Shown here piece by piece: positions 33,647-63,895 of a stretch of DNA of 64,000 nucleotides (within the stretch, counting starts at the first letter, position 1; each line of letters starts with the position of its first letter). A model generated the notes under the pieces. It was not told the origin of the DNA. It saw only the letters and a program-made list of their open reading frames with translations, and ran no database searches. Both the position numbers and the translations under genes were made by a program. This DNA comes from a virus, in the IMG/VR virus record IMGVR_UViG_3300037474_000073; one strand, written 5' to 3'.

Positions 33647-33856
33647 TCAGACTTCGCTGACCTCCGTGGTCTCCCAGATCATCACCGAGGCGTCTCGGCG
33701 AATGATCGTTCCTGTCTTCTGAACTACAGGGTGACCCATGACCATGAAGGTTTCGCTGCCCTGGAATATGTCCGTGACCTTGATGGCGCGACGTTTCTTG
33801 GCATAGCAGTCTTTGACTCGGATCGTCATCCCGATCTTGATCTCATCTCGCGTCAT
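33647..33856 (-). CDS. low-GC small protein (69 aa), leaderless
   Basis: Trimmed to the ATG at 33856, 6 nt after the -10 TACAGT. About 52% GC by eye, against about 66% for the window. Lys/Ile-rich: MTRDEIKIGMTIRVKDCYAKKRRAIKV... Confidence 0.55.
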   Translation of the reverse strand: MTRDEIKIGMTIRVKDCYAKKRRAIKVTDIFQGSETFMVMGHPVVQKTGTIIRRDASVMIWETTEVSEV

Positions 33857-33862
33857 ACTCAG

Positions 33863-33900
33863 ACTGTACCCCCACCCCACCGACCGCGCAAGGAGCTTGC
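33863..33900 (-). promoter_or_regulatory. conserved promoter/operator module
   Basis: Minus strand: palindrome GCAAGCTCCTTGC (33888-33900) containing the -35 TTGCGC, a 17-bp spacer, then GTGGGGGTACAGT (33863-33875) with the -10 TACAGT. Confidence 0.6.
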
Positions 33901-33947
33901 GGGATCCACATCGTACGATGGCAATTCAACCGATCAGGGGGGCGATC

Positions 33948-34520
33948 ATGACGAACAGCACGAAGCAAGATCAGACGGTCATCCGAGATCATCCGGCAGT
34001 CGGACTCGGGCTGATGCGCCACATGTGGGAGATGTACGCCGAGACGTTCGAGGGGATCAACGCGCTCGCCGTCCAGCGGCACATGATGACCTACGCCGAG
34101 TTCGCTGCGGTCTGCATGGACGACCGGATCCACAAGTACGTGGCCACCGACGCGGCCGGCGTCCAGGGCATGTCGCTGCTGACCAACGACCTGAACGCGT
34201 GGCCGCTGATCAGCCCCGCCTACTTCGAGAGGCACTGGCCGACGCACTACGCGGCGAAGAGCGTCTGGTACGTCGGATTCGTCGCGGTCGCCGAGGGCGC
34301 ACCACATCACCTGTTCCCCGAGCTGATCGCCGCGATGTACGAGCCGGTCAAGGCGAGCAAGGGTGTCGCGGTCATGGATTTCTGCTCGTACAACGTCGCG
34401 AGTCGCAGGCTGCCGGACGTGACGACCCGGATCCTGCGCCGCCTGAACGCCTCGGCGGTCGGCGCCCCGATCGACGCGCAAGAGTTCTGGCTCTGGGAGT
34501 TCCCCGACCTGAACGTCTGA
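33948..34520 (+). CDS. hypothetical protein (190 aa), possibly GNAT-like fold
   Basis: Trimmed to the ATG after AGGGGGG. Opposite orientation to the flanking genes. The segment ..SVWYVGFVAVAEG.. is weakly GNAT-like; function not established. Confidence 0.5.
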   Translation: MTNSTKQDQTVIRDHPAVGLGLMRHMWEMYAETFEGINALAVQRHMMTYAEFAAVCMDDRIHKYVATDAAGVQGMSLLTNDLNAWPLISPAYFERHWPTHYAAKSVWYVGFVAVAEGAPHHLFPELIAAMYEPVKASKGVAVMDFCSYNVASRRLPDVTTRILRRLNASAVGAPIDAQEFWLWEFPDLNV

Positions 34521-34527
34521 GCACGAG

Positions 34528-34566
34528 AAACGGCCCGCTCGCCCATCGGGGGTAAGCGGGCCGTTT
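34528..34566. terminator. bidirectional stem-loop between convergent genes
   Basis: AAACGGCCCGCT-15 nt-AGCGGGCCGTTT, a 12-bp stem with flanking A/T runs. Confidence 0.6.
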
Positions 34567-34588
34567 CATGCCATCGGTCAGCGGCACC

Positions 34589-34804
34589 TTACCATCCGGG
34601 AACCTCAAACTCCTGCCCGTACTGAGCGGGGATCGACGCCGTCTGCCCGGCCTCGTTGACGCACCAGATCGCCACGTTGTCCGGCATCTCCGGTGCAAAG
34701 ACCTCGACACTGACGACGGTCACGTTCACCGGGTTCTTTTCGTGAAAGGCGAACGACTGGATCCGATCGCCCTTGGTCAGGGCTTCGGCGATCTTCGTAG
34801 CCAT
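34589..34804 (-). CDS. hypothetical protein (71 aa)
   Basis: ORF at the end of the early region. Confidence 0.55.
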   Translation of the reverse strand: MATKIAEALTKGDRIQSFAFHEKNPVNVTVVSVEVFAPEMPDNVAIWCVNEAGQTASIPAQYGQEFEVPGW

Positions 34805-34836
34805 CGCGGTCCCTTCGTCGTCGGTGATTCGGGAGT

Positions 34837-35109
34837 CTAACCCGCCGGCCGGTCCATCCGGCGCACCAGCACCTCGAGCGCCAGCACCCGATCGAGGAGA
34901 GCGGCGAACACCTTCACGCGGATGACGTCGTCGGGCGGTTGATTCAGTTCCCGGCAGACCCGGATGATCTCCAGAGCCGTCGTGCGGTCATGCGTGAATG
35001 CCGGTTCCGAGAACCAGTAGCGCTCGCCCATCGCCGCCGAGTCGGCGCGGTGCGCGAACTCGGCCAGCAGCGCGTCGTCAGTACTCGACCGCGGCTCGGT
35101 CATCGCCAT
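34837..35109 (-). CDS. hypothetical protein (90 aa)
   Basis: Trimmed to the ATG that overlaps the upstream stop (TGATG). Confidence 0.55.
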   Translation of the reverse strand: MAMTEPRSSTDDALLAEFAHRADSAAMGERYWFSEPAFTHDRTTALEIIRVCRELNQPPDDVIRVKVFAALLDRVLALEVLVRRMDRPAG

Positions 35110-35393
35110 CAGACACGCTCCATCAGGTGCCACACGAGCTGCTCGCCGCCGATGCACTGGTCGATCGGCACGAGCGCGGTCCCGACGTACGCATACTCGG
35201 CGGGTCCGATCTCGTGACCGGTGCCGAACACCCGAAAGTAGCGGCGGCGAAGCCCGGTGGGAGTCCACAGCGCCCAGAACTCCACCACGGCACGCCGCCG
35301 GCAGGCGACATGCAGGATCCGGTCGGGCACCAGCATCTCCCGGTCGTCGCCGTCGACCGGTACCTCGTAGCGGTAGATCCTCTGGTTCGCCAT
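35109..35393 (-). CDS. hypothetical protein (94 aa)
   Basis: Compact ORF with the pattern YRYEVPV...FWALW...FGTGHEI...LVWHL. Confidence 0.6.
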   Translation of the reverse strand: MANQRIYRYEVPVDGDDREMLVPDRILHVACRRRAVVEFWALWTPTGLRRRYFRVFGTGHEIGPAEYAYVGTALVPIDQCIGGEQLVWHLMERV

Positions 35394-35752
35394 CAGTCCT
35401 CACCTACCGAAGGTTCGTGGATCGCGGTCGGGATCGGTTTGCCGTCGGTGCCGAACAGTTGGGCGGGCGTGTCCGGCGCGTTGTCGGTGATCTCGGCGAA
35501 AGCGCGCATCCAGTGCGTCATCGCCATCCGGAAGATAGCGCCCTGCACCTGATCCATCTCGCTCGGACCCATCAGCGACGGATGCACCGCGACGGCCACC
35601 CGCCACCCGGTCCCGTCGCCGCCGTCGCTCTGCATCGCGATCCAGGTGATGTACCGCAGCGGGTAGGTCAGCGCGGTCCGGATGTCGAGCCAGACCGCGG
35701 TGCCGTCGGGAAGGGTCAGCCACTCGCCGTGCCGCTCACCGCCCATGATCAT
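35393..35752 (-). CDS. hypothetical protein (119 aa)
   Basis: Trimmed to the ATG 5 nt after the upstream stop. Confidence 0.55.
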   Translation of the reverse strand: MIMGGERHGEWLTLPDGTAVWLDIRTALTYPLRYITWIAMQSDGGDGTGWRVAVAVHPSLMGPSEMDQVQGAIFRMAMTHWMRAFAEITDNAPDTPAQLFGTDGKPIPTAIHEPSVGED

Positions 35753-35757
35753 GACTC

Positions 35758-36096
35758 TCACGACGGACCCACCTTCGCGACGAACGACCGGCACTGATCC
35801 ACGTTCCGGCAGGACAGACATACGCCCTCGCGGGCCGGAACGGTGACCCCCCGATCGTCCACGTCACCGTGCGCCGACCTCGGATGCCCGCACAGCGTCC
35901 GCGCACACGAAGGCTCGCCGGCGAGCATCCGCGCCACCGACTTGACCGCAGCCGACGGCCGGCTCATCGCCATCGCCCCGATCACCTGCAGGATCCCGTC
36001 CGTCGTCGGGTCGCTGTCGTCGCCCCAGCTCACCTCGATCGAGCTCGGGATACCGCCCTCGGGTGCGGGGTCGCTCCACACGATCCGGACGCTCAT
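35758..36096 (-). CDS. hypothetical Cys-rich protein (112 aa)
   Basis: ATGA overlap with the upstream stop. Confidence 0.55.
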   Translation of the reverse strand: MSVRIVWSDPAPEGGIPSSIEVSWGDDSDPTTDGILQVIGAMAMSRPSAAVKSVARMLAGEPSCARTLCGHPRSAHGDVDDRGVTVPAREGVCLSCRNVDQCRSFVAKVGPS

Positions 36097-36386
36097 GACG
36101 GCACCTGCGACCAGTCGATGACGACCTCGAGCCGACCGACCGTGAACGGCGGCGAGCCGTCCGGCGGGTCGACGTAGTTGAACGTCGTCTGCAGCCGGTA
36201 GGGCTCCATGCCCGGCGCGCAGATCGGCGCGTCCGGACCGGTGACCCGGATCAATACCGAGTCGTTCTCCCACTGATCTCGGACGCCGGTCACGTGCCAG
36301 CCGTCGGGAAGCTGCAGGATCCGAGACAGTTCATCGACACCCAGCCGCACGATTGCTGCGCGCCGCGGTTCCGCTGGCGCGCTCAT
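36093..36386 (-). CDS. hypothetical protein (97 aa)
   Basis: ATGA overlap with the upstream stop. Confidence 0.55.
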   Translation of the reverse strand: MSAPAEPRRAAIVRLGVDELSRILQLPDGWHVTGVRDQWENDSVLIRVTGPDAPICAPGMEPYRLQTTFNYVDPPDGSPPFTVGRLEVVIDWSQVPS

Positions 36387-36715
36387 GACGGCAGCCCCGC
36401 CGAGTTGCCCTCGGTCGCCTCGCGCAGCGCGTCCACGTCGACCAGCGGTTCCCGCTTCGGCTCGGGCGTCGGAACCCACTCGCTCGCGTAGACCGTGACC
36501 GAGCGCTCGTAGCGGACGGTGCGGACCGGCTTCGGCTTCCTGTCCATCAGCGCACCGGCGAGGTTGCCCCAGGTGACCCTGATGTGCGGTTCCATCCGGA
36601 CGGGCTCGCTGTCGACGACCGTCCCATCGGCGAACTCGCTGCGGACCATCACCTCGCGGTAGGTGGTCTCTCCCGTCGCCTCGCCGACCTTGCGCCCCTC
36701 GATTGCATCCTTCAT
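36383..36715 (-). CDS. hypothetical protein (110 aa)
   Basis: ATG after GGGAGACGAG. Confidence 0.55.
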   Translation of the reverse strand: MKDAIEGRKVGEATGETTYREVMVRSEFADGTVVDSEPVRMEPHIRVTWGNLAGALMDRKPKPVRTVRYERSVTVYASEWVPTPEPKREPLVDVDALREATEGNSAGLPS

Positions 36716-36999
36716 CTCGTCTCCCTGCGTTGCTGTTGCCGTGCGATCACAGCCTCCCAACCAGAGACCGTACTTGCGGTACGTTTTGCGGCTCGGCGGA
36801 CCGGTAAAGATTGACCGGTGCCGGCCGACTTTGCGGGGCGAGTTGCGGGCTTCTCGCCGCTGCGTTTGCGGGACGAGTGCGGAACCTCGGCGAACTGCGA
36901 CGGCAGGGATTGCGGTCCGACCGCGAGCAGCGTGTAGCACGCCCCGCCCTTCTTGGCCTCGCACACGTCGCACGCCAGGTACGATCCCCAGTCGGTCAC
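36712..36999 (-). CDS. hypothetical protein (95 aa), CxxC plus basic tail
   Basis: GTG after GGGAGGGGG. Both ends are 4-nt coupled to neighbours. Confidence 0.45.
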   Translation of the reverse strand: MTDWGSYLACDVCEAKKGGACYTLLAVGPQSLPSQFAEVPHSSRKRSGEKPATRPAKSAGTGQSLPVRRAAKRTASTVSGWEAVIARQQQRRETR

Positions 37000-37121
37000 C
37001 GGTCCACCCCCTCCCAGGTCACGGACTCGCCCCGCAACCACTCCCGCAACAACACCGCACCGACGGACGCCGCGCCCGCAAGTGCGAACCACCACGCCAA
37101 CCACAGTTTGCGGTCACTCAC
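36996..37121 (-). CDS. micro-ORF, 41-aa single-TM peptide
   Basis: VSDRKLWLAWWFALAGAASVGAVLLREWLRGESVTWEGVDR. Its stop overlaps the next start (GTGA) and its GTG lies inside the end of the upstream gene. Below the track cutoff. Confidence 0.4.
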   Translation of the reverse strand: MSDRKLWLAWWFALAGAASVGAVLLREWLRGESVTWEGVDR

Positions 37122-37383
37122 CCCGCACCTCGAACGACGCCACGTCGTACCAGTGGTCCGGACCTGCGGGGGCTGTGTAGAGCGGCGGCTGCCAGCCGGG
37201 CGGGAACAGGTACGGGCGGCCGGCGAGCTCTGCCGCCTCGCGGAACCACAGCCCGCCCAGCAGATTCATCTCCTCGTGATGCCGGATCGCGGCGGCGAAC
37301 GCAGCCTCCTTGGTCTCGCCGACGGCGAGGAACCCGCGCCCGCCGTCGTACTTCGACAAGCTCATCGCTACCCAGACGATCAC
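37114..37383 (-). CDS. hypothetical protein (89 aa or shorter)
   Basis: ORF coupled to its neighbours. Confidence 0.55.
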   Translation of the reverse strand: MIVWVAMSLSKYDGGRGFLAVGETKEAAFAAAIRHHEEMNLLGGLWFREAAELAGRPYLFPPGWQPPLYTAPAGPDHWYDVASFEVRGE

Positions 37384-37544
37384 GACCGATCACCCCACAG
37401 CCTCGGCTCGCACCCGCCGGCCGACCTCGGGATCGGCTGCGGCCACGGCCAGGTGAGCTTGCACCGCTGGCACAACCACTGCGCACCGTCACGGACGATC
37501 CGGTGACTGTCGAGCAGCGCGTCCGTCGTCCGGTCGTCAGGCAT
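37380..37544 (-). CDS. hypothetical protein (54 aa)
   Basis: Trimmed to the ATG near the upstream stop. Contains CQRC. Confidence 0.4.
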   Translation of the reverse strand: MPDDRTTDALLDSHRIVRDGAQWLCQRCKLTWPWPQPIPRSAGGCEPRLWGDRS

Positions 37545-37797
37545 GAGGCACCGGCGGATTCGCGCACAACGCCATCGACGCCGGGTGCACCCAGGCGTTG
37601 CCGGACCACATCGCGGTGATCCCATGCCCGCACACTGCGGTATCGCCGGACTCGGGAACGGGAGGACCGGGCAGCCGGTCGTGAATAGCGATCCACGCCA
37701 TCGTCATCCAAGCCATCGCCTCAACGCGCTCGGGGCTGTCGCCGGTCGATGTCGACGCGTACCGGATCGCCTTCTTGAGTGCCTCGTCGCGGGTCAT
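37537..37797 (-). CDS. hypothetical protein (86 aa)
   Basis: ATG overlaps the upstream stop (TGATG). Confidence 0.5.
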   Translation of the reverse strand: MTRDEALKKAIRYASTSTGDSPERVEAMAWMTMAWIAIHDRLPGPPVPESGDTAVCGHGITAMWSGNAWVHPASMALCANPPVPHA

Positions 37798-38144
37798 CAC
37801 AGCACCAGCCGATACAGCCAGATGAGCAACAGGATCAGCGCGGCCGAAGCACCGGCGCCGAGGAGCCCGACGATCCACACGCCGACCTTCGTGGCAGTAG
37901 GTAGATCTACGTACCTCGGCGCCTCGTCCGGCACCTCAGCCGGCGTATCCCAGTTCCACTTACCCGACTCGTTCTCGGGCAGGCGGATGGTCACCGAGTC
38001 GCTGTCCGGGTCGAACCGGTAGGTGACGATCGGACGCGGCGCGGCCGCGAGCTCAGCGCGGGTCAGCGTCAGTTCCGCCAGGTGGGCGTGCATCATCACG
38101 GCACCGCAGATCGCGCCGTCGAGCAGGATCGGTTCGTCGCTCAT
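37797..38144 (-). CDS. C-terminally membrane-anchored protein (115 aa)
   Basis: C-terminal TM segment VGVWIVGLLGAGASAALILLLIWLY. Confidence 0.55.
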   Translation of the reverse strand: MSDEPILLDGAICGAVMMHAHLAELTLTRAELAAAPRPIVTYRFDPDSDSVTIRLPENESGKWNWDTPAEVPDEAPRYVDLPTATKVGVWIVGLLGAGASAALILLLIWLYRLVL

Positions 38145-38611
38145 CGGGCGGCCTCGGCGCGCTGCGGGGTGGCCTTGAGCCCTCGCCGGTCGATCGCCTC
38201 GGCGATGGCGACGGCTACCGCGGCGACCTGGATCGCCTCGGCGCGCATCTTGGCGTCATCGCCCTCGGCGTGGGACAGGACGATCGCCTCGACGAACTCG
38301 GCGACCTCCTCGAGGAGGATGCCGGCCCACGTCCCGCCGTGTAGACCGGCCTCGCTCTCGCAATGCAGCCGGGCGCGGTTCGCGGTCGGCACCTCGTACT
38401 CCTCGGCGACCCGCTTGGCGACCTCGGTCGGGTGCGAGTACCGCTGCGGACGGCCGAGGCTGTCGAGCCGACCGAGCCGCGCGAGCAGAACCGGGTCGGC
38501 GTCGGCGATGTCCGACTGATCGCCCCACTTCGCGAGCTGACGGAACCGTTCGTCGATCACCTCGCTGATAACCGCGCCCATCCGATTGACCCCTGTGACT
38601 TCGTCGCTCAT
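38141..38611 (-). CDS. MazG-like nucleotide pyrophosphohydrolase (putative)
   Basis: Trimmed to the ATG after GAGGGAGACGAG. All-helical, with LLEEVAEFVEA...EAIQVAAVAVAIAE acidic motifs. Confidence 0.45.
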   Translation of the reverse strand: MSDEVTGVNRMGAVISEVIDERFRQLAKWGDQSDIADADPVLLARLGRLDSLGRPQRYSHPTEVAKRVAEEYEVPTANRARLHCESEAGLHGGTWAGILLEEVAEFVEAIVLSHAEGDDAKMRAEAIQVAAVAVAIAEAIDRRGLKATPQRAEAAR

Positions 38612-38708
38612 CTCGTCTCCCTCGAGTCGGTGGCTCCGTAACCCGCTCCGATCGTGCTCACCGCTGACACCGAGCAAGCACGAGCGGAACGGGAGGCGCA
38701 ACCACCGA

Positions 38709-39185
38709 TCAGAACGGCGGCTCATCGTCGAAGTTACTGGTCTGGGTCGGGCCGCGCGAGCCGGACGAACCGAACCCGCCCGAGGCGCGCGTACCGCCGT
38801 CGGCACCGCCGTTCTCGCCCTTCGCGACCCGGCTCACCGTAGCGGTCGCCCACTTCAGACTCGGGCCGATCTCGTCGACCTCCACCTCGTACACCGTGCG
38901 CTTCTCACCCTCGCGCGTCTCGTACGAGCGCTGACGCAGCCGGCCGGTCAGGATGACCCGCATGCCCTTGGTCAGCGACTCGGCCACGTGCTCGGCGGCG
39001 TCGCGCCAGATGTTGCACGCCAGGAACAGCGGTTCGTCGTCGACCCACTCGTTCGTCTGCTTGTCGAAATGGCGGGGCGTGCTGGCGATCCGGAACTTCG
39101 CGACGCCCGCGCCCGACGGCGTGAAGCGCAACTCTGGCGCCTCTACCAGGTTGCCGATCAGCGTGATCTGCGTGTCACCGGCCAT
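38709..39185 (-). CDS. ssb: single-stranded DNA-binding protein
   Basis: Canonical OB-fold N-terminus ([28 protein letters not shown]..), a Gly-rich linker and an acidic tail ending DDEPPF. Confidence 0.95.
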
Positions 39186-39423
39186 TGCGTGCTCCCTCGG
39201 TCTTCAGTCGTTCGATGTTGGTCATGACGTACTCGGCGGTCGCCGACCGGTTGAACGTAAGTTCGCCGCCGGTCGGCGTGTCGATCACAAACCGGTAGGC
39301 GTGCTCAACGTCCGGCAATCCGACCGCAGAACGCAGGTCGGCGACAGCCTCGGCACCGAACACCTCGCGCGCCTCAGCCACGACGTCCACGATCCGCAAG
39401 TGCGGGTCATACTCGACGGTCAT
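39175..39423 (-). CDS. hypothetical protein (82 aa)
   Basis: ORF coupled to ssb. Confidence 0.55.
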
Positions 39424-39671
39424 GAGCCGTCACCGTGCGGACCCTCGACGTTCTCGGACAGCGGCGTACCCGTGTCGGCATGCTCGCGGTAGTCGTTGAG
39501 CAGATCATCGAGCACGTGCCAGGCGGTAGCACCAGGCGCCGCCTCCTTCTGGAAGTCGTCTCGCGCCCGCTTGATCCACGCCTCCACCACGTCACCGCGG
39601 CGAGGCTCGAACGGCTTGACCTGGAAACGATCGTCGCCGTCGTAACCACCGGCTGGATACGGATGTCTCAC
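39420..39671 (-). CDS. hypothetical protein (83 aa)
   Basis: Trimmed to the GTG after CCGAGAGAGAGCGAGACGAA. Confidence 0.5.
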   Translation of the reverse strand: MRHPYPAGGYDGDDRFQVKPFEPRRGDVVEAWIKRARDDFQKEAAPGATAWHVLDDLLNDYREHADTGTPLSENVEGPHGDGS

Positions 39672-39793
39672 TTCGTCTCGCTCTCTCTCGGTGCCGGCCG
39701 GACCGGCTCGGTCTTGCTGGCGGCCGCGACGATCGCGGTCAGGATCGCGGCGAGCTGGTACGACCTGCTCGGCTGGCGGTGCTGCCCCCTCAT
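39668..39793 (-). CDS. micro-ORF, 41-aa single-TM peptide
   Basis: MRGQHRQPSRSYQLAAILTAIVAAASKTEPVRPAPRESETK. ATGA overlap upstream and GTGA overlap downstream. Confidence 0.4.
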   Translation of the reverse strand: MRGQHRQPSRSYQLAAILTAIVAAASKTEPVRPAPRESETK

Positions 39794-40448: not shown

Positions 40449-40543
40449 CACCGACCCCCCCGCCATGCCTGAACCAGCGCCACGATCCACGCGCCGACCA
40501 GGATCGCGAGTAGCACGACCATCGCATAGATGACTAGGTCCAT
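40448..40543 (-). CDS. micro-ORF, 31-aa single-TM peptide
   Basis: MDLVIYAMVVLLAILVGAWIVALVQAWRGGR. TGATG overlaps at both ends. Confidence 0.4.
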   Translation of the reverse strand: MDLVIYAMVVLLAILVGAWIVALVQAWRGGR

Positions 40544-41291: not shown

Positions 41292-41309
41292 CTCAACCAG
41301 CTCCCAAAC

Positions 41310-43042: not shown

Positions 43043-43291
43043 TCAGATTTCGAACATCGGGGTCAGGTCGGCGTACATGCTGTCGTCGTACTTCGCGGGC
43101 GTCCATCCGTCGGACGCGATCAGGTAGCCGTGACCGAACAGGACCGACTCGACGGTGCTCATCTCGGCGGGATACGTGCCGGCCGGACCGCAGACGCCCG
43201 CATACCGGTTCTGGATCACGGTCACCGTGCCGACGGCGTAGTCGAACGACGCCTCGAAGGTGACCGGGTCGGCCTTGCTCGGGTAGTGCAT
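43043..43291 (-). CDS. hypothetical protein (82 aa)
   Basis: ATG after CCGAGAGAGCGGAGCACCC. First gene downstream of the promoter module at 43397. Confidence 0.6.
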   Translation of the reverse strand: MHYPSKADPVTFEASFDYAVGTVTVIQNRYAGVCGPAGTYPAEMSTVESVLFGHGYLIASDGWTPAKYDDSMYADLTPMFEI

Positions 43292-43396
43292 GGGTGCTCC
43301 GCTCTCTCGGGCTGTGCTGTAAAGCAGGGCGGCGCCTGTCTCCGGTATGAGCCTTGCGGTCTGCCGGCGCTCTCACCGCCCTGCCTTACGAGAACT

Positions 43397-43447
43397 ACTG
43401 TACCCCCACGTACCGAGCAGCACAAGCCATCCGCGCAAGTTCTTTGC
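43397..43447 (-). promoter_or_regulatory. conserved promoter module (variant)
   Basis: Minus strand: GTGGGGGTACAGT (43397-43409), -35 TTGTGC (43420-43425) at a 17-bp spacing, and a degenerate palindrome GCAAAGAACTTGC (43435-43447). Confidence 0.5.
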
Positions 43448-45154: not shown

Positions 45155-45166
45155 GTACAAAACCGG

Positions 45167-54756: not shown

Positions 54757-54950
54757 CACGCGGCCGTCTCGACCGGCAGGCTGAGCCGCTCGCTGGTCTG
54801 CTCGTCGGTCTCTTCGAGCAGGAGGTCGAGCATCGCGGTCAGGTACGTCGACCGGTCGATGCCGAGCCGGTCGCACTTCTCGGCCGCCTTCTGCCAGCGG
54901 TCGGTGGGATAGCGCCAGTTCTGTTTGGGCGTGCCCCTGGTCGTAGCCAT
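54756..54950 (-). CDS. ribbon-helix-helix (CopG/Arc-like) DNA-binding protein
   Basis: Trimmed to the ATG after GAGAGAGGTGACCAC. 64 aa. WRYPTDRWQKAAEKCDRLGIDRSTYLTAMLDLLL fits a strand-helix-helix pattern. Confidence 0.5.
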   Translation of the reverse strand: MATTRGTPKQNWRYPTDRWQKAAEKCDRLGIDRSTYLTAMLDLLLEETDEQTSERLSLPVETAA

Positions 54951-54973
54951 GTGGTCACCTCTCTCATGCAATG

Positions 54974-55007
54974 GATGTACCCCCACTATAGCGCGCTGTA
55001 CCCCCAC
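54974..55007 (-). promoter_or_regulatory. tandem GTGGGGGTACA boxes upstream of the RHH gene
   Basis: Minus strand: GTGGGGGTACAGC (54995-55007) and GTGGGGGTACATC (54974-54986), 21 bp apart. No GCAAG-N3-CTTGC palindrome nearby. Confidence 0.5.
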
Positions 55008-55014
55008 ACGACAA

Positions 55015-55043
55015 CAGCCCCCGACCGTGAAGATCGGGGGCTG
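55015..55043 (-). terminator. stem-loop terminating the 59440-55057 operon
   Basis: CAGCCCCCGA-9 nt-TCGGGGGCTG, followed by TTGT on the minus strand. Confidence 0.6.
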
Positions 55044-55056
55044 TCGTGCGAATTGG

Positions 55057-56636: not shown

Positions 56637-56654
56637 GATTCCTTCTCTCTCGGA

Positions 56655-57497: not shown

Positions 57498-57934
57498 CGG
57501 GCTTGCCGCCTCTCTCGCCTCAGGTCTGCGTCACGCTTACATATCCGGCATCTGGTAGGGACCTGTCGATCTACTCCATGACGGCATTTCGTCTTGTCGC
57601 GACGGTACGGCCGTCGATTCTCGGCCTGCTCCTCGCTGGTCGCCCAGCGACAGTTCTCGGGCGAGTAGCCCGCGTCGTTGTCGCGACGATCCAGACTGCG
57701 CCCCTCTGGTCGCTCGCCCATGTCGGCGTAGAAATTGGCGAACTCGCGCCAGCGTTCGCAGACCGTGATTCCCCGTCCGCCGTAGTCGGCATAGCGAGCG
57801 TGCTTCGGTCGGGTGCATCGATAGACCATGTCGCACCAGATGTAATAGATCTTGGTGCCACACATCCCGTGCGTGCTCACACCCTCATGACCACCGCTGC
57901 GAATTCGGATCCCGCCACTGACGATCGCGGTCAT
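57494..57934 (-). CDS. HNH/AP2-like DNA-binding (homing-endonuclease-like) protein
   Basis: Trimmed from the off-frame track ORF (start 58708). ATGA overlap. IYYIWCDMVYRCTRPKHARYADYGGRGITVCERW...DRRDNDAGYSPENCRWAT. Confidence 0.55.
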   Translation of the reverse strand: MTAIVSGGIRIRSGGHEGVSTHGMCGTKIYYIWCDMVYRCTRPKHARYADYGGRGITVCERWREFANFYADMGERPEGRSLDRRDNDAGYSPENCRWATSEEQAENRRPYRRDKTKCRHGVDRQVPTRCRICKRDADLRRERRQAR

Positions 57935-58977
57935 GACTCCTTCTTTCGCGGCGGCACCTTGTACGCCTTGTCGATGTAGATCGTGTGACCCGTGCGCTGC
58001 TCGACGACCTCGGGGTCGGCGTACGCGTCGGGGTACCTCTCGCGCAGCTTGTCGAGGTCGACGTGCGTGCGCGAGGTCGGAACGTAGCGGTAGGCGGGAT
58101 TGTCGGAGAACAGCACGAGCTGCCGGCCGGCAGCGAGTTGCGCGAGCCGCGCCCGCGCCTCCTCCAATTCCTTCTTGGCGTCGCCGGCCGCGCGCGACTT
58201 GAGCGCGTAGTCCATCACGTCGCCGATGTCGTCGATGCCGATCTCGCCGACCCGATCCGGATACATGATCGCGTCCATCTCGAGCAGCTTGGCGGCCTTG
58301 CCGGCGACGTCCCAGGCGGGCTCGCGACGCGGGATCAGGTGCTGGGCCCGGAACTTGTCGACCTCGCCGACGATGAACGCCATGAGGTCGGCCTCGCGGT
58401 CGGCGTAGACGATCCCCTGCTTCATCACGTTCCCGCCGATCAGGCAGGCATAGTGCGCGTGGGCGTATCCGGTGACGTAGAGCTGGTGGAGGATCTGCGC
58501 GAGGATCCGGTCGGGGATGTCGGCGTGCCAGCGTGACGCTGAGGCGAACCCGACGTTCTTGACCTCGAGCAGGCACTCGCCCTCGGCGGTGTCCTTGTAG
58601 ACGGGGCATTCCCGAACCCGCCGGTCGATCGTGGACTGGTGCCACGGCGCCGCCGCGTGCGACACGAGCCCGATCTCGTCGATGACCGTCCGGTTGCGGC
58701 GGCACCACTCGGATGCGATCGGGTCTTCGAGTAGGTGCCCCCAGGTCATCGCCTCGTTCTGTGGCGTCTGGTATCCCTCGACCTTCGCCTTGTAGACGTG
58801 GACCGGCGTGTCGACCCCATCCAGATCCAGGATGGACGGCACGTCGGACGACCCGATGCAGAACAGGCCGGGCACGGTCGGACGCATCCGCCGAGCCTGA
58901 AGCCAGTCGGCACGCGCCGCCGCAGCGGGCAGCACGAGCCGCCCGCGCGGCGTGATCATTTCCCCGATCTCAGTCAT
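57931..58977 (-). CDS. YqaJ-like (lambda Exo-type) recombination exonuclease
   Basis: IGSSDVPSIL ... WGHLLEDPI ... LLEVKNV ... ILHQLYVTG fits the PD-(D/E)XK YqaJ pattern. Confidence 0.8.
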   Translation of the reverse strand: MTEIGEMITPRGRLVLPAAAARADWLQARRMRPTVPGLFCIGSSDVPSILDLDGVDTPVHVYKAKVEGYQTPQNEAMTWGHLLEDPIASEWCRRNRTVIDEIGLVSHAAAPWHQSTIDRRVRECPVYKDTAEGECLLEVKNVGFASASRWHADIPDRILAQILHQLYVTGYAHAHYACLIGGNVMKQGIVYADREADLMAFIVGEVDKFRAQHLIPRREPAWDVAGKAAKLLEMDAIMYPDRVGEIGIDDIGDVMDYALKSRAAGDAKKELEEARARLAQLAAGRQLVLFSDNPAYRYVPTSRTHVDLDKLRERYPDAYADPEVVEQRTGHTIYIDKAYKVPPRKKES

Positions 58978-59075
58978 CGTCTCTCACTCTCGGGTCGGCG
59001 ACCCATCCGGATCGGCTGCCGCACCACGCAGGCGAGCAGCCGGATCCAGAACGGGTCGGAATCGTAGGCGATCAT
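58974..59075 (-). CDS. micro-ORF (33 aa)
   Basis: MIAYDSDPFWIRLLACVVRQPIRMGRRPESERR. TGATG overlap upstream and ATGA overlap downstream. Confidence 0.3.
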   Translation of the reverse strand: MIAYDSDPFWIRLLACVVRQPIRMGRRPESERR

Positions 59076-59440
59076 CAGAACGGGCAGGGGCGGTCGGTCG
59101 GGTCCACGATCTCCCACGGTTCGGCGACGCGCGGGATCAGGTGGATCGCGGCGGGGTCGGCGATCTTCCAGCCGACTCCCTCGAACGTCGCGATGCGAGC
59201 CGCCATGAACACGGAGGGGTCGGTGCCGCGCGGGATGGGGAACTCGAGGGTCGTGCCGACGAACTCGCCGCCCTCGCGCATCTGCACTCGCGGGTAGGCG
59301 GCGATGACCCAGTGCTCGGCGTCGTACCGCGAGAAGGTCACGGTCTCGTACACCTCGCCCATCGGGCGGAACATCGTCACCTGGTCGTCGGGGGTCATGA
59401 CCTCGGCCTCGTTATCCCAGCCGATCATGTTCTCGCTCAT
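59075..59440 (-). CDS. hypothetical protein (121 aa), first gene of the early operon
   Basis: ATG after ACGAGAGAGAAACCGAGG. 36 nt separate the -10 (end 59477) from the ATG. Confidence 0.6.
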   Translation of the reverse strand: MSENMIGWDNEAEVMTPDDQVTMFRPMGEVYETVTFSRYDAEHWVIAAYPRVQMREGGEFVGTTLEFPIPRGTDPSVFMAARIATFEGVGWKIADPAAIHLIPRVAEPWEIVDPTDRPCPF

Positions 59441-59476
59441 GCTGACCTCGGTTTCTCTCTCGTTGTGCTGAGGTCA

Positions 59477-59553
59477 ACTGTACCCCCACGGGGCCTCACG
59501 TGCAAGCGGCTTGTGACAAGCTACTTGCACAATCGGGTCGGCGAGTGCATGCT
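59477..59553. promoter_or_regulatory. divergent promoter/operator region
   Basis: Leftward: GTGGGGGTACAGT (59477-59489 on plus) with -35 TTGCAC (59500-59505) at 17 bp. Two palindromes: GCAAGCGGCTTG 59502-59513 and ACAAGCTACTTGC 59516-59528. Rightward: -35 TTGCAC 59525-59530, 17 bp, -10 CATGCT 59548-59553. Confidence 0.6.
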
Positions 59554-59559
59554 GAGGAC

Positions 59560-59898
59560 ATGACAGACATCCGGATCCAGACGACCGGGCGCGACACGCT
59601 CGTGACCGGCGCCCACCGCGGTACGACGCTGATGCGACTGCTCTCCCGCGCCCTCGGCGACGCCGGTCCGCTGGACCGGTTCATCGCCAGTCGGCGTGTG
59701 CCGGGCGACCGCTGGCACCGCTGGTCGGACATCGCCGACGACATCGCGACCGCGACCGGTGAACGCTTCAGCGGTGAGTCGGTCCGCCAGTGGGCGGTAA
59801 CGCTCGGCATCCCGCAGGACACCGGTAAGAACGACGGCGCGATCGCGCGCGGTGCGTTCCTCGACGCGATCAGCAAGCAGGGCATTCCGTACGTCTGA
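59560..59898 (+). CDS. helix-turn-helix regulator candidate (112 aa), leaderless
   Basis: Trimmed to ATG 59560, 6 nt after the -10. HTH-like WSDIADDIATATGERFSGESVRQWAVTLGI. Confidence 0.55.
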   Translation: MTDIRIQTTGRDTLVTGAHRGTTLMRLLSRALGDAGPLDRFIASRRVPGDRWHRWSDIADDIATATGERFSGESVRQWAVTLGIPQDTGKNDGAIARGAFLDAISKQGIPYV

Positions 59899-60156
59899 GC
59901 TTTCCAGGTCAGCGGCGAACGTCCACATGGGCGGCGTGAGCCAGCGTCCGACGCGCGTGGTCCCGGTGCGTGACCGGTTACGGGGCACTAACTCCATACT
60001 TCAAGGCGCGGGTCGTCGGTGTTTTCCGCACTCATATCCACCGCAAGGCGGCCGATCCGGAACTGCAATTCCGGGGAGCCTGTCCTGCCCGCGCCGTGAC
60101 CCGACGAGAGCCGGGTCGGATCAGGGAGCGTGCCGGTCCGGCTCGGCTCTTTCCAT

Positions 60157-60194
60157 GCAAGCTACTTGCGTGATCCGCCACGTGGGGGTACAGT
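60157..60194 (+). promoter_or_regulatory. conserved promoter/operator module
   Basis: GCAAGCTACTTGC 60157-60169 containing -35 TTGCGT (60166-60171), a 17-bp spacer, then GTGGGGGTACAGT 60182-60194. ATG 60201 lies 6 nt after the -10. Confidence 0.65.
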
Positions 60195-60200
60195 AGGGGC

Positions 60201-60449
60201 ATGACGAAGACAGAGGTCGCCCGACTTGCCATCCTCTCGGTTTCCGAAGATCGGGACAGGGTGCGCCCCTCACACCTGACGATCATGGAAATCTGCCGGA
60301 CGCTCAAGCTGTCCACCGATGAGGCGGTTTCTCTGCGGGCGACCGTCGTCACCGACTGGCTGCTCGAAGAGAACGAGGAACGTCGCGACCTGCTTCATCT
60401 CGCTAAGACCGTGATCAACCAGTACGCCCGCGACTACAGCCTTCGCTGA
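60201..60449 (+). CDS. hypothetical protein (82 aa), leaderless, possible HTH
   Basis: No room for an SD. Contains IMEICRTLKLSTDEAVSLRATV. Confidence 0.6.
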   Translation: MTKTEVARLAILSVSEDRDRVRPSHLTIMEICRTLKLSTDEAVSLRATVVTDWLLEENEERRDLLHLAKTVINQYARDYSLR

Positions 60450-60458
60450 GAGGTTTAC

Positions 60459-60854
60459 ATGAACCGCCTTAAGTCGTCAGGCTCGTGCCGTATTTGCCGT
60501 ACCTGGCTCGAGGGCGAGTGGGCGAACTCCAGAATCGCAGCGGTGCGCGCCGAGATCGAACGGCAGATGGCGGCCGGCATCTGTGACGGATGCCAGCGTA
60601 AGCGGCAGCTTGCCGCGCGGGAGTACATCGCCGCCTCGGATGACGTGCGCCTGTGGTTCCAGGTGCTGACCGCGCTCGGTTACCGCACGCCCGAGCAGTA
60701 CGCGAACGGTATGCCGGACGCCATGATCACCCGTGTCAAGACCGCCGAGGAGAGGTGTATCTCCCTCGGCATGTGGTCTCGGCATCGGGGAGCGGACGTC
60801 CCGGAACGGTTCCGGGAGCCGCCGAAGTATCGACCGAGGGAGACGCAATGCTGA
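60459..60854 (+). CDS. zinc-ribbon-like protein (131 aa)
   Basis: Contains CRIC ... CDGC. Confidence 0.55.
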   Translation: MNRLKSSGSCRICRTWLEGEWANSRIAAVRAEIERQMAAGICDGCQRKRQLAAREYIAASDDVRLWFQVLTALGYRTPEQYANGMPDAMITRVKTAEERCISLGMWSRHRGADVPERFREPPKYRPRETQC

Positions 60855-61696
60855 CCATTCCTACGAGTGAGCTGATCGGTCTGCTGACCGACGTGCTCGG
60901 ATTCGTTCCGGTCGTCAAGGACGACCCGCGCCACGGTGTGCTGATCGAGTGGGACGGCGACGCCCTGCACGCCAGCGCCTACGACGTGCTGTCCGCCGGC
61001 CGTTCGACCTGGACGCCGGGCGAGGGTCTGGAAGGTACGACGGAGATCGACGAGAACGACACGATCCGTCCCAACTGGGGCGGCGACGACCCCGCCTGGA
61101 AGGCGTTCGTGTCGCTCGACGACGTGAAGGACATCGTCAAGACGTTCAAGGTCGCGAACAAGCTCTGGTGGCTCCCGCTCTCGGTGAAGATCTCACCGAC
61201 CGGCGGCAAGCTGACGGTGGAGCGTGCCGGCGACTTCGGCAAGCCTGCCGCCCTCGTGACCGTCGCCGTCGACCACGACGTGACCGCCAAGTTCCCCGAC
61301 GTACGCAAGGCATTCGAGGGGATGTACGACGAGTGGCACGCGCTGGACGACACGATCGACACGATCACGTTCAGCCCGTACCGCCTCGCCGCGTTCGGCA
61401 CGGTCCGCTCTCACGGCACGCTCGTGCTGAGATTCGCCGGCGAGCAGGGCGCGGTGTCCGCGTCGATGGGCAGCCGCTTCATCGGGTTCATCTTCCCGGC
61501 CGGCGCGCGCATCGCCGAGGCGTCCGCGATCCTGAACGCGGCCGGCGACCAGGCGGGTTCCGATCTCCTGCGCCACGGCACCGGCGTCCACACCAGCACG
61601 GTGCCCGAGCAAGATGCCAGGGACGACGGCCCGGCAAGCGACACGTCTCTGGATCCGTCCGACGAGGATGACGACAACGGATCGCAGTTCGACTAG
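60848..61696 (+). CDS. sliding-clamp-like (DnaN-like) protein, short form with acidic tail
   Basis: Trimmed to the ATG after GAGGGAGACGCA. MLTIPTSELIGLLTDVL...GVLIEWDGDALHASAYD...AKFPDVRKAF...GFIFPAG parallels the clamp motifs of 49837-51018. 282 aa. Confidence 0.45.
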   Translation: MLTIPTSELIGLLTDVLGFVPVVKDDPRHGVLIEWDGDALHASAYDVLSAGRSTWTPGEGLEGTTEIDENDTIRPNWGGDDPAWKAFVSLDDVKDIVKTFKVANKLWWLPLSVKISPTGGKLTVERAGDFGKPAALVTVAVDHDVTAKFPDVRKAFEGMYDEWHALDDTIDTITFSPYRLAAFGTVRSHGTLVLRFAGEQGAVSASMGSRFIGFIFPAGARIAEASAILNAAGDQAGSDLLRHGTGVHTSTVPEQDARDDGPASDTSLDPSDEDDDNGSQFD

Positions 61697-61772
61697 CCCG
61701 CACACGACGGAGGGGCGGACCCGTGGAGGTTCCGCCCCTCATCGATCCCGAGAGAGATGAGAGAACCATACC

Positions 61773-62912
61773 GTGAGCACCTCAGAGATTCCTGACACCG
61801 TCACCGGATGGTTCGGCGACGACCCTACTCGGCTGTGGCTGCTGGTCGTACCGACCGCCCTCGCCATCGTCATCGGGTGGCGTCTGATCCGGTTCGCCCG
61901 CGGTGGTCGCCCCGATGCACGGGTGACGCTGGTCGCCACCCTGATCGGTCTCGGCTGGTCGGCGCAGGGCATGTGGGACACCGCCGTGCACCACTACAGT
62001 GTGGCGCCGATCCTGGCCGCCGTGCTGTTCCTGCTCTTCGAGTCGTTCATGGTCGGCAACATGCTGCGCGCCGCCCGCTACCGCACCGACCGGGTACGCC
62101 GAGCGCGCCCGGTCCGATTCGTGTGGCTGACCGCGGTCGTGATGGGCGTGATCGTCGCTCTCGCCGAAGGTGCCGGGCAGGCGCCGTTGCGGCTCGCCGT
62201 CCCGTTGTTGGTCGCCGGCAACTGGTGGATTGAGCTCGTCGCCGACGACGACCCTGCCGACAAGCTGAGCACCTCGTGGAAATGGACGCCGCGCCGCCTC
62301 GGTCTCGCGCTCGGGCTGCTCGAGCCCGGCGCCAAGGACGCGGTCACGATCGACCGAGACCGGCTGACCGCCAAGCTGACCGCGCTGCGTTTCCGTCAGC
62401 GCTACGGCTGGACCTGGCTCGGTGACGTGACCGGTCGCTCGCGCCGGATCGCCCGCCTGGGCCTGCTCGCCGATGACGCGATCGTGACCGAGTCGGACCT
62501 GCGCCTGCAGCGCGCCGCCCGGCTGATGGGTGACGAACCGGTGCCGCCGGCCGACCAGCCCGCGCCCGAGTCGCACCCGACGATGCCCGAGCAGCCCGCA
62601 CCGCCCGCCCGTGTTCCCGCACCGACACCCGAGCCCGAGCCCGAGCCCGAGCCCGCCCCGACCGAGGGCACCCCGCTTCCGCAGGGCGTCCACATCCGCG
62701 CCGGCCGCACGTTACGTGGCGCGGCCCTGCGTGCCGACGCCGCTGCCCGGTTGCAGGCGTCCATCGGTGCCGAGCGCCCGCGCGGCATGACCACCGCCGA
62801 GCTCGCCGCGCTCTATACGCCGCCACTCAAGGTCCGCACCGCCGAGGCGATCGCCGCCGAGGCGCGCAAGTCGCTACCGGTCAACGGTCACCGGTTCGCC
62901 GACGCGAACTGA
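61773..62912 (+). CDS. polytopic membrane protein (379 aa), DUF2637/Spd-like candidate, Pro-rich linker
   Basis: GTG after CCGAGAGAGATGAGAGAA. About 4 N-terminal TM helices, a PEPEPEPEP linker and a C-terminal helical region. Confidence 0.6.
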   Translation: MSTSEIPDTVTGWFGDDPTRLWLLVVPTALAIVIGWRLIRFARGGRPDARVTLVATLIGLGWSAQGMWDTAVHHYSVAPILAAVLFLLFESFMVGNMLRAARYRTDRVRRARPVRFVWLTAVVMGVIVALAEGAGQAPLRLAVPLLVAGNWWIELVADDDPADKLSTSWKWTPRRLGLALGLLEPGAKDAVTIDRDRLTAKLTALRFRQRYGWTWLGDVTGRSRRIARLGLLADDAIVTESDLRLQRAARLMGDEPVPPADQPAPESHPTMPEQPAPPARVPAPTPEPEPEPEPAPTEGTPLPQGVHIRAGRTLRGAALRADAAARLQASIGAERPRGMTTAELAALYTPPLKVRTAEAIAAEARKSLPVNGHRFADAN

Positions 62913-62922
62913 CAGACACAGA

Positions 62923-62955
62923 GCAGCCCCCGACCTGAGCAAGGTCGGGGGCTGC
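62923..62955. terminator. bidirectional stem-loop between convergent genes
   Basis: GCAGCCCCCGACC-tgagcaa-GGTCGGGGGCTGC, a 13-bp perfect stem, then TTCGT. Confidence 0.7.
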
Positions 62956-62968
62956 TTCGTGCGGTAGC

Positions 62969-63193
62969 TCAGTACGGATAGACCTTGCGCAGGGCCGTCC
63001 GCATCCGAGAGATCATGTCTTCGGTCGCCGCGCTGTCCTCAGGGTCGCCCATCTCGACGATGCCTGCGGTGATGTCCAGGAAGTCGCAGAGCAACTGAGC
63101 CTGGCTTTCGTTGACGACGATCGTGACGTCGCCGTACTCGTTCTTCTCAATGTCGATGGTGTCGGTGTCCGCGAGGTTGCTCATGCCTGTCAT
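62969..63193 (-). CDS. acidic hypothetical protein (74 aa)
   Basis: Trimmed to the ATG that overlaps the stop of the zinc-finger ORF (ATGA). Confidence 0.55.
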   Translation of the reverse strand: MTGMSNLADTDTIDIEKNEYGDVTIVVNESQAQLLCDFLDITAGIVEMGDPEDSAATEDMISRMRTALRKVYPY

Positions 63194-63342
63194 CCGTTCT
63201 GCGAGTTGACGTCGTGGTCGGTCCTGAGCTCGTGACGCTCGAGTTCGTCGCGGGTCGCATATCCGGCGCCGCACTCGTCGCACTCGTACTTGATCCTGCC
63301 GCGCCCGGTCTGTGCGTCGCTGATGCGCTGGGTCTCGGTCAT
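63190..63342 (-). CDS. 50-aa C2H2-type zinc-finger protein, leaderless
   Basis: MTETQRISDAQTGRGRIKYECDECGAGYATRDELERHELRTDHDVNSQNG (C-X2-C-X12-H-X5-H). ATG 63342 lies 6 nt after the -10. Below the track cutoff. Confidence 0.5.
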   Translation of the reverse strand: MTETQRISDAQTGRGRIKYECDECGAGYATRDELERHELRTDHDVNSQNG

Positions 63343-63348
63343 AGCTCT

Positions 63349-63412
63349 ACTGTACCCCCACCCCCTAAGTTATGCAAGCTACTTGCGCAGACGGGTAGGG
63401 TGGGGGTACAGT
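63349..63412. promoter_or_regulatory. near mirror-symmetric divergent promoter/operator
   Basis: ACTGTACCCCCAC 63349-63361, 12 bp, GCAAGCTACTTGC 63374-63386, 13 bp, GTGGGGGTACAGT 63400-63412. -35 TTGCAT (leftward, 17-bp spacer) and TTGCGC (rightward, 18 bp) lie within the palindrome. Confidence 0.65.
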
Positions 63413-63442
63413 AGTCGTATCACCGAGAGAGAGCAGGACACG

Positions 63443-63895
63443 ATGAACAAGCCGATCACCTTCCAGGTCGTCAAGGGCACGAACGTCCGGCGCAACGCCG
63501 AGACCGGCCTCGAGATCCACCGCGACTGCGACGGTTTCACGTTCTTCTCCCGCCAGCGTGACGGCTCCCTCGCCTACTGGGGCGAGGAGTACAGCCTGCG
63601 CGAGGCGCTCGCCGAGGGCCGCGAGAAGGTCCAGATGATCCGCGACCACATCGACATGGACCACGAGGATGCGCTCGAGATGGAGCAGGAGCGGACGCTG
63701 GCGCACATCACCGAGGTCGCCGCCGCAAACGACCTCCCCCGCAGGGCGCGCGAGCTCGCCGAGGGCATCTACATCAAGGCGATCAACTTTCGCAAGGGCG
63801 GCGAGTACGGCAAGGCGATCGGCTATCTGAACGCCGCAGTCGTCAGCATCGACAAGAGCGCCGAGGCATACGCCTTCATGGCAGGCACCCGATGA
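63443..63895 (+). CDS. hypothetical protein (150 aa)
   Basis: Trimmed from track start 63290 to the ATG after CCGAGAGAGAGCAGGA. Confidence 0.6.
   Translation: MNKPITFQVVKGTNVRRNAETGLEIHRDCDGFTFFSRQRDGSLAYWGEEYSLREALAEGREKVQMIRDHIDMDHEDALEMEQERTLAHITEVAAANDLPRRARELAEGIYIKAINFRKGGEYGKAIGYLNAAVVSIDKSAEAYAFMAGTR

Follow-up and report, generated by a model that had tools for sequence, protein, structure and literature searches.

A 13-nucleotide element and an adjoining dyad as a candidate transcription cassette in a metagenomic tailed phage

The DNA considered here is a 64,000-nucleotide (nt) stretch of IMG/VR record IMGVR_UViG_3300037474_000073 (hereafter the window), which belongs to an unclassified metagenomic tailed phage with a GC content of ~67%. 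Several of its intergenic regions carry the same 13-nt sequence, GTGGGGGTACAGT, in which a G-rich segment (GTGGGGG, here called the G-box) is followed directly by the hexamer TACAGT, and a short dyad, GCAAG-N3-CTTGC, often lies upstream. What is this composite element, and what reads it? We favor, with a probability of about 0.62, the interpretation that the 13-mer, together with the DNA around it, is a cassette for transcription that the phage uses repeatedly and that would combine a host-type promoter, a G-run, and a dyad operator.

Distribution and anatomy of the repeated element

A search of the window for GTGGGGGTACAGT with up to two mismatches returned exactly eight sites, compared with 0.76 +/- 0.89 expected, and none of 100 shuffled sequences reached eight. 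Six copies are exact (33863, 43397, 59477, and 63349 on the minus strand; 60182 and 63400 on the plus strand). The preliminary description had named all eight sites, and all were recovered, but it had listed those at 54974 and 54995 as if they were exact. These two are degenerate: the copy at 54995 ends in TACAGC and the copy at 54974 in TACATC, such that the final T of the -10 element is missing in both. All eight sites lie in DNA called non-coding, which makes up ~16% of the window at most. Each site also points toward the next gene on its own strand, as had been claimed. TACAGT itself occurs only eight times on both strands of the 64 kb, six times directly 3' of GTGGGGG, and TAC is the next triplet at eight of the 13 occurrences of GTGGGGG.

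The sites have the anatomy of promoters. A -10 element of the form TANNNT is present as TACAGT at six of the eight window sites, and a -35 hexamer of the form TTG(C/T)NN, which conforms to TTGNNN, lies 17-18 base pairs (bp) upstream at six of eight. At the six exact sites, in site order, these hexamers are TTGCGC, TTGTGC, TTGCAC, TTGCGT, TTGCAT, and TTGCGC, with a spacing of 17 bp at 33863, 43397, 59477, 60182, and 63349 and of 18 bp at 63400. A purine is found 7 nt downstream of the -10 at the 13-mer promoters. The classical extended -10 (T at -15, G at -14) is absent, since the spacer ends in T-18 G-17 G G G G-13 and position -15 is a G; GG at -14/-13, as in the G(-14/-13) element, is present in all window copies. 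Each full copy would therefore, by its architecture of (C)TTGC(G/A)N, 17-18 bp, and TACAGT, be a strong promoter for host polymerase carrying the housekeeping sigma factor. A generic sigma-70 scan scores the TTGCGN/TACAGT combination only 8 of 12 and hence misses these promoters, so the zero count from that scanner is uninformative. The copies at 54974 and 54995 are not ordinary members of the promoter set: their -10 is defective, and both a dyad and a proper -35 are missing.

Approximately 10 related metagenomic phages were recovered, and the promoter architecture is common to them; the counts given here for relatives are pooled over 54 non-redundant sites at 13 loci. Scanning them for both boxes, as the preliminary description had suggested, located TACAGT at 47 of the 54 sites and a -35 matching TTGCG at four or more of five positions at 39 (17 bp upstream in 32, 18 bp in 7). 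The closest group (L011, L014, and L015) encodes a 112-residue protein that is 63-65% identical to one from the window, and these phages carry the exact composite (dyad, 12-13 nt, GTGGGGGTACAGT) at orthologous and additional sites. When orthologous intergenic regions of the closest relatives are aligned, the 13-mer and the dyad arms are invariant; the spacers and discriminators vary. In the distant lineages (L038/L001-L007, L034, and L046), the promoter reads cTTGCg, 10-11 nt, (G/C)TGGGGGTACAGT and has no dyad, and it often lies directly 3' of a terminator hairpin.

Start codons stand at a fixed distance from many of these promoters. The ATGs at 33856, 60201, and 63342 begin exactly 6 nt past TACAGT, and that at 59560 begins 6 nt past a CATGCT hexamer (59548-59553), in agreement with the 6-nt rule proposed earlier. 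Among the related sites, an in-frame ATG is found at exactly +7 in 15 of 54, with one further ATG at a distance of 7 nt, and the predicted +1/+2 dinucleotide is AT in 29 of 54. Independent gene calls in the relatives begin on the same ATGs, whose position is kept, and the N-termini agree. We infer from this geometry, which fits, that the mRNAs of the four window genes and of 15 related genes are leaderless. Transcription would most likely start at the A located 7 nt past the -10. Where this A opens an ATG, the mRNA would have no leader; elsewhere, the message would open with AT(A/C)CCGAGAGAG…, a leader that is short and includes a purine-rich ribosome site. The promoter geometry would also correct several start codons that open reading frame (ORF) finders place too far upstream.

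The sites outside the early switch region, with their neighboring features, are as follows.

33863-33875, minus strand: G-box and -10 (GTGGGGG-TACAGT), with a -35 (TTGCGC) 17 bp upstream within the dyad at 33888-33900
33647-33856, minus strand: gene for a 69-residue protein, predicted to be leaderless and driven by the 33863 promoter
33888-33900, no strand: exact dyad GCAAGgagCTTGC, which supplies the minus-strand -35 and lies between divergent genes (the plus-strand gene starts at 33948)
33610-33629, minus strand: hairpin resembling an intrinsic terminator, then a T-run, directly after the 69-residue-protein gene (-20.5 kcal/mol, z -4.1)
43397-43409, minus strand: G-box and -10 with its own -35 (TTGTGC, 43420-43425) at 17 bp, and a ~100-nt leader to the ATG at 43291
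43435-43447, no strand: dyad with one mismatch, shifted to a position upstream of the -35 that serves the 43397 promoter
54974-55007, minus strand: two tandem degenerate G-boxes (…TACAGC, …TACATC) without a dyad, located immediately past a terminator hairpin, with the next gene beginning at 54950
55014-54985, minus strand: promoter-like TTGTCG-18-TATAGT, which overlaps the tandem G-boxes to give TATAGT+GGGGG+TACATC
55010-55050, minus strand: strong hairpin inside the early operon that runs leftward, a short distance upstream of the tandem G-boxes (-33 kcal/mol, z -6.9)
60106-60151, plus strand: terminator-like hairpin, then TTTCC, after the 112-residue-protein gene and abutting the dyad at 60157 (-34 kcal/mol, z -3.95)
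60157-60169, no strand: exact dyad GCAAGctaCTTGC at a one-directional promoter, with the left arm kept in four phages
60182-60194, plus strand: G-box and -10 with a -35 (TTGCGT) at 17 bp, positioned to drive 60201-60449 and the downstream operon
60201-60449, plus strand: gene for an 82-residue protein, predicted to be leaderless
63349-63412, no strand: two-directional cassette made of ACTGTACCCCCAC, 12 nt, the dyad at 63374-63386, 13 nt, and GTGGGGGTACAGT
63190-63342, minus strand: gene for a 50-residue protein, predicted to be leaderless, the leftward output of the 63349-63412 cassette

The promoter, the 69-residue-protein gene, and the terminator at 33610-33875 make up a complete one-gene unit, and the hairpin at 60106-60151 together with the adjoining dyad and promoter is a terminator-promoter cassette. 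The terminator-like hairpins (33610, 55010, and 60106) fold far better than shuffled sequences. The minus-strand leader at 43291-43396 contains a long inverted repeat, GGCAGGGCGG … CCGCCCTGC, which may act as an attenuator or as a stabilizing hairpin. On its rightward side, the cassette at 63349-63412 has a 24-nt leader to the ATG at 63443. This cassette is also a 64-nt near-perfect palindrome that folds as RNA at -39 kcal/mol (z -6.2); the DNA might extrude as a cruciform, or read-through transcripts might fold into a hairpin. The 50-residue protein has a eukaryote-style C2H2 zinc-finger pattern, YECDECGAGYATRDELERHELRTDH, with a sub-threshold match to Pfam zf-C2H2 (E 2.4e-4), and it was found in the window and L014 only. 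Searches of PHROGs and Pfam with the other small promoter-adjacent genes gave nothing.

What may read the G-run

The preliminary description held that the invariant GTGGGGG is not explained by the host consensus. That statement was too strong. Guanines at -14/-13 matter for SigA promoters in Mycobacterium tuberculosis and Mycobacterium smegmatis (Zhu et al. 2017, as cited in PMC6448022 and PMC6344877), and GG at these positions occurs at ~2 times the expected frequency in Streptomyces HrdB promoters (PMC6344877). Furthermore, a cross-phylum study that included M. smegmatis found that a G-rich spacer end next to the -10, with an AT-tract before it, promotes transcription (PMC12641261). The distant lineages show exactly this order, …tta and then GTGGGGG…. 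The G-run is thus partly explained by published features of actinobacterial promoter strength; what survives of the earlier statement concerns its outer part and its invariance. We consider it most likely that the G-run from -19 to -13 represents a maximized G-rich spacer end, including the G(-14/-13) element, which would confer strength on the promoter and reduce its need for a -35. The copies that have no -35 at all (54974 and 54995 in the window, 5034 and 5058 in L011, 13870 and 13887 in L038, and 5760 in L001) fit an element that lessens -35 dependence.

Leaderless SigA/HrdB promoters of actinobacteria, including the minimal type composed of a -10 and G(-14/-13), are alike in having TANNNT, G at -13/-14, and 17-18 bp to TTGNNN (PMC3898074, PMC6448022, PMC6344877, PMC6614810). 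They also resemble the present set, on its predicted start sites, in beginning at a purine that has C at -1, in having the ATG at the start itself, and in lacking a ribosome-binding sequence. However, host promoters show little -35 conservation and a free -10 middle, whereas 13 consecutive bases are fixed here. In addition, the G-run here reaches -17 with a T at -18, and the classical TG (-15/-14) is absent.

Several observations weigh against the interpretation of the G-run as a feature of a host-type promoter. The outer part (T-18 and G-17 to G-15) and the strict 7-bp invariance are left unexplained, and the normally free middle bases of the -10 are invariant as well, which goes beyond published polymerase preferences. 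In L009, six of seven TACAGT sites carry GGGAG, with G-13 retained, and in L010 four of five carry GTGGG, with both guanines retained. GC content does not separate the lineages with variant G-runs. This coordinated change suggests a specific reader in trans. Finally, in the inverted pairs described below, one arm faces against the neighboring gene.

Paired G-boxes without a -35 are found at one conserved mid-operon position, in tandem in the window (54974-55014) and inverted in relatives (L038 13870-13900; L009 13300-13340; L010 9195-9230; L011 5030-5065). In L038 and L009, this mid-operon pair reads GATAAT+GGGGG/GGGAG+TACAGT. In L038, TTTTT comes after the inverted pair, and the whole resembles a terminator with a 3' arm that also serves as a promoter. 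In L001, G-box promoters with their own small genes (5760 and 13288) face against the structural-gene operon, and these units may be likened to moron-like insertions between tail and capsid genes.

These facts leave room for a different account, in which a phage protein recognizes the 13-mer, or just the G-rich half of it, as an asymmetric site. The protein would be either a repressor lying over the -10, as at the mycobacteriophage L5 operator, or a promoter-specificity factor, with site and reader having shifted together in sister lineages. We regard this account as unlikely, but it draws on much of the evidence above: the 13-mer does not vary within a genome even at the -10 middle bases, G-run variants switch coordinately and lineage by lineage, the G-box is perfect in the two copies with a defective -10 (54974 and 54995), and inverted pairs lacking a -35 sit at a conserved mid-operon site. 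There is also precedent in Cluster A mycobacteriophages, where asymmetric, transcription-oriented sites of 13-14 bp vary along with the repressor (PMC6550527). The stoperators of these phages share with the present element a 13-bp asymmetric repeated motif that is oriented with transcription and differs between related phages, and at the true operator they contain a core promoter hexamer (PMC6550527, PMC9283540). However, a genome carries 20-30 stoperators, the majority of them away from promoters (PMC6550527), whereas only 6-8 copies per genome exist here, nearly all with complete promoter anatomy. No relative of the L5 gp71-type repressor was found in the window, and the sites do not qualify as stoperators as defined for Cluster A (PMC6550527). 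Moreover, the proteins that are kept throughout the clade, which are the 112-residue protein and a CxxC protein (60459-60854), give no informative match, no candidate reader was identified, and a G-rich spacer end is already known to be read by polymerase (PMC12641261).

The activator version of this account has a bootstrap problem, because in this phage it is G-box promoters that stand before the first operons, and the search turned up no other strong promoter. Scanning ~100 ORFs with Pfam revealed no sigma factor (E<=0.001-0.01), integrase, or known repressor family, and the 84 ORFs of the gene set contain no polymerase catalytic motif (no DxDGD). Because no sigma factor or polymerase was found, the first-gene promoters must work with unmodified host polymerase, and for both reasons a phage activator is unlikely to be required. 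A related proposal, which we regard as unlikely, is that the G-run sets promoter specificity and has a dedicated reader, either a phage protein or an undescribed contact of polymerase in high-GC Gram-positive bacteria, and that it has been re-specified in step across all promoters of sister lineages (GGGGG to GGGAG in one and to GTGGG in another).

The dyad and the switch region

Searching for GCAAGNNNCTTGC with at most one mismatch produced eight matches, compared with 1.32 expected. Exact dyads lie at 33888, 60157, and 63374, and one-mismatch dyads are present at the promoters at 43435, 59502, and 59516; the matches at 10976 and 53511 probably reflect chance. Six of the eight matches are thus at G-box promoters, and each of the five loci where one had been described upstream (33888, 43435, 59502/59516, 60157, and 63374) was recovered with at most one mismatch. 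Also confirmed was the claim that the right arm of the dyad supplies the -35 at 17-18 bp, which is true of five of the six sites having a -35; at 43435, a separate TTGTGC serves instead. In the window, L011, L014, and L015, exact dyads occur at G-box promoters only.

This overlap raises the alternative that the dyad is not an operator but two back-to-back -35 hexamers left over from two-directional cassettes. The right arm is indeed the -35, both arms serve divergent promoters at 63374 and at several sites in relatives, and CTTGCG is the -35 consensus in lineages without a dyad. Other findings make such an origin improbable. Four diverged phages have a dyad over the -35, even at promoters that act in one direction and in which the left arm plays no part, and at an orthologous one-directional promoter this unused arm is kept in all four while the neighboring spacer diverges. 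The switch described below carries two dyads where one would supply both -35 hexamers, as it does in L014, and in the switch palindrome of distant lineages the second half has no -10 partner. The comparative evidence thus supports the dyad as a conserved element in its own right. A palindromic site over core promoter elements, repeated at early promoters, is the arrangement of an operator switch, and we consider it most likely that the dyad laid over the -35 in the window and its closest relatives would serve as an operator for a phage regulator.

The switch region of the window contains the following features.

59477-59489, minus strand: G-box and -10 of the leftward early operon, with a -35 (TTGCAC) overlapping the dyad at 59502-59514 and a ~30-nt leader to the ATG at 59440
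59502-59514 and 59516-59528, no strand: two adjacent one-mismatch dyads that span the -35 elements of both divergent promoters
59525-59553, plus strand: weak rightward promoter TTGCAC-17-CATGCT, 6 nt before the ATG at 59560
59560-59898, plus strand: gene for the 112-residue, predicted all-helical protein, a candidate dyad binder

The gene for the 112-residue protein occupies the same position in every lineage examined, divergent from the early operon. One member of the dyad pair covers the -35 of the leftward G-box promoter and the other covers the -35 of this gene's own weak promoter. Three relatives keep that weak promoter as TTGCGC-17-CATNNT-6/7-ATG; with the window included, four phages share the form TTGC(G/A)C-17-CATNNT-6/7-ATG. 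Where the two dyads meet, the sequence CTTGTgACAAG corresponds to the lone switch palindrome CTTG(C/T)GCAAG of the distant lineages, and a palindrome of the same half-sites adjoins the homologous small gene in every lineage examined. In the distant lineages, one half of this palindrome is the -35 of an early promoter that has no G-box. Because the other half has no -10 partner, promoter needs do not explain the palindrome, which alone among these elements is a constant neighbor of the gene.

In four distant phages (L010 4360-4410, L038 8950-9000, L034 6470-6520, and L009 8995-9035), the -10 hexamers of the early promoter (TTGCGC-17-nAnACT) and the regulator promoter (…TACAGT, other strand) overlap, so the distant switch could accommodate only one polymerase at a time.

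Given its position and a helix-turn-helix (HTH)-like sequence pattern, which are what suggest DNA binding, the 112-residue protein is the best candidate for the dyad binder and hence for the regulator. Since one of the two switch dyads covers its leaderless weak promoter, the protein would be autoregulated. An exhaustive profile search found that the family is small, with 47 clusters among 1.84 billion representatives, and its members share the pattern SW..IA…TGE.V(S/T).E..R.WA. A structural model built from five sequences was poor (predicted local distance difference test, pLDDT, 49), and the use of 45 sequences raised the pLDDT to 88 and gave five helices. A second candidate regulator is the 131-residue protein encoded at 60459-60854 on the plus strand, which has two CxxC pairs and is kept near the 112-residue-protein gene in every related lineage; it gave no family or structure match.

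Other results speak against this assignment and against the operator function. The 112-residue protein has no Pfam match above threshold, no PHROG, and no sequence match in the PDB; only two of 45 family members show weak matches to HTH_32/HTH_33; and a fold search of the PDB and viral models with its predicted structure revealed no significant structural neighbor. A PDB sequence search with the 112-residue family and the 131-, 282-, and 379-residue proteins likewise returned nothing. The order of half-sites also differs in the distant relatives (CTTGC|GCAAG there and GCAAG-N3-CTTGC here), which is awkward for a single binding mode. Apart from this, the dyad and the G-box promoter are separable: in most related lineages the promoter occurs and the dyad does not. 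The earlier proposal of one regulon of SigA-type promoters gated by a dyad-binding protein is therefore sustained with respect to promoter anatomy and the conserved dyad, but it must be narrowed because the dyad is separable and two copies fall outside the ordinary set.

Downstream of the 112-residue-protein gene lies a conserved non-coding stretch (59899-60100 in the window, 445-640 in L015, 7700-8630 in L009, and 750-1630 in L048). Approximately 90 nt of it are common to the window and L015; the same position holds tRNA-Val and ~950 nt of non-coding DNA in L009, and ~900 nt with the tRNA T-arm-like sequence GGTTCGAATCC in L048. Rfam gave no match to this stretch, which may be an unrecognized RNA gene.

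The phage, its probable host, and comparable systems

Recognizable genes of the window include those for a capsid, a Mu-type portal, and a large terminase (minus strand), together with two further regions.

11325-15065, minus strand: gene for the tape measure protein
Leftward from 59440: early operon encoding a YqaJ-type exonuclease, an RNase T-like exonuclease, ERF, two DNA methylases, a sliding clamp (DnaN), and SSB

A 658-residue protein encoded at 35-2011 on the plus strand combines a hydrophobic N-terminal segment with a P-loop (GMTRTGKT) and looks like a membrane-anchored FtsK/TraB-type DNA translocase; Pfam returned no match for it. No near-identical phage was found in GenBank, and the terminase and portal share <41% identity with those of any isolate phage. 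The same proteins recur on metagenome contigs. Rfam found nothing in the window at gathering thresholds, no tRNA is present in the window, and a full-text literature search for the motif string retrieved irrelevant primers only.

The matches to the portal come overwhelmingly from actinobacteriophages, and an actinobacterial host is plausible on the basis of the portal and terminase relatives. The preliminary description had pointed to actinobacteria on the basis of promoter features. TANNNT elements and leaderless starts are typical of these bacteria (PMC3898074, PMC6614810) and abundant in M. tuberculosis (PMC3898074), but the same two features also typify Deinococcus-Thermus (PMC12340547). 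The full composite motif had no match in 185,579 reference genomes, and a relaxed version had 17 single matches in unrelated taxa, which is the chance level; there is consequently no sign of a prophage and no direct clue to the host from this source.

A different polymerase specificity is very improbable: GGGTAC is embedded in the 13-mer, as in the -10 (GGGTAC/T) of stress sigma factors of the SigB/SigF class, and long invariant promoters are typical of phage-encoded RNA polymerases, but the SigB/SigF -35 (GTTT-like, 14-17 nt upstream of GGGTA(C/T)) is absent and the aligned region holds cTTGCg phased to TACAGT, the conserved features (TTGCGN at 17-18 bp, TANNNT with its final T, and A at +7) fit the housekeeping sigma factor, and the searches described above found neither a Pfam sigma factor or polymerase nor a catalytic motif, so we rejected both forms of this idea. 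Nothing supported the further idea that the GTAC within the 13-mer serves methylation or restriction, and we set it aside.

Two known phage arrangements bear on the favored cassette interpretation. In temperate-phage switches such as lambda OR, as in the window, a short palindrome lies over the -35, with copies at several early promoters, two adjacent copies between a small divergent regulator gene and the early operon, and one copy covering the weak leaderless promoter of the regulator. The conserved inverted repeats of Streptomyces phage phiC31 are another example of a repressor-operator switch. The window differs in that neither an integrase nor another lysogeny gene was found among ~100 ORFs, and no prophage copy was found in the reference genomes; evidence of lysogeny, in the form of integrase or partition genes or of prophage copies, is thus lacking in these searches. 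It also differs in that the candidate regulator falls in no recognized DNA-binding family and the palindrome spans only 5-3-5 bp.

The second arrangement is that of the mobile promoter and stem-loop cassettes of T4-type phages (PMC2839356), which are alike in placing a terminator hairpin before a near-identical early promoter, flanking small ORFs of unknown function, and in forming single-gene units and inserts against the structural operon. They differ in phage lineage, host, and sequence.

All components of the cassette are known kinds of element, and it is a new example of known phage regulatory logic. What it provides is a regulatory map, with promoters, probable operators, terminators, and start codons, for a clade of high-GC phages whose proteins are almost wholly unannotated. 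For synthetic biology in actinobacteria, it is also a source of small promoter parts that are probably very strong and may be repressible, among them a two-directional version of 64 bp. The in-step changes of the G-run between lineages raise a modest question that can be tested, namely which factor recognizes positions -19 to -13. If the G-run does have its own reader, this clade would be a natural experiment in the co-evolution of promoters and their readers.

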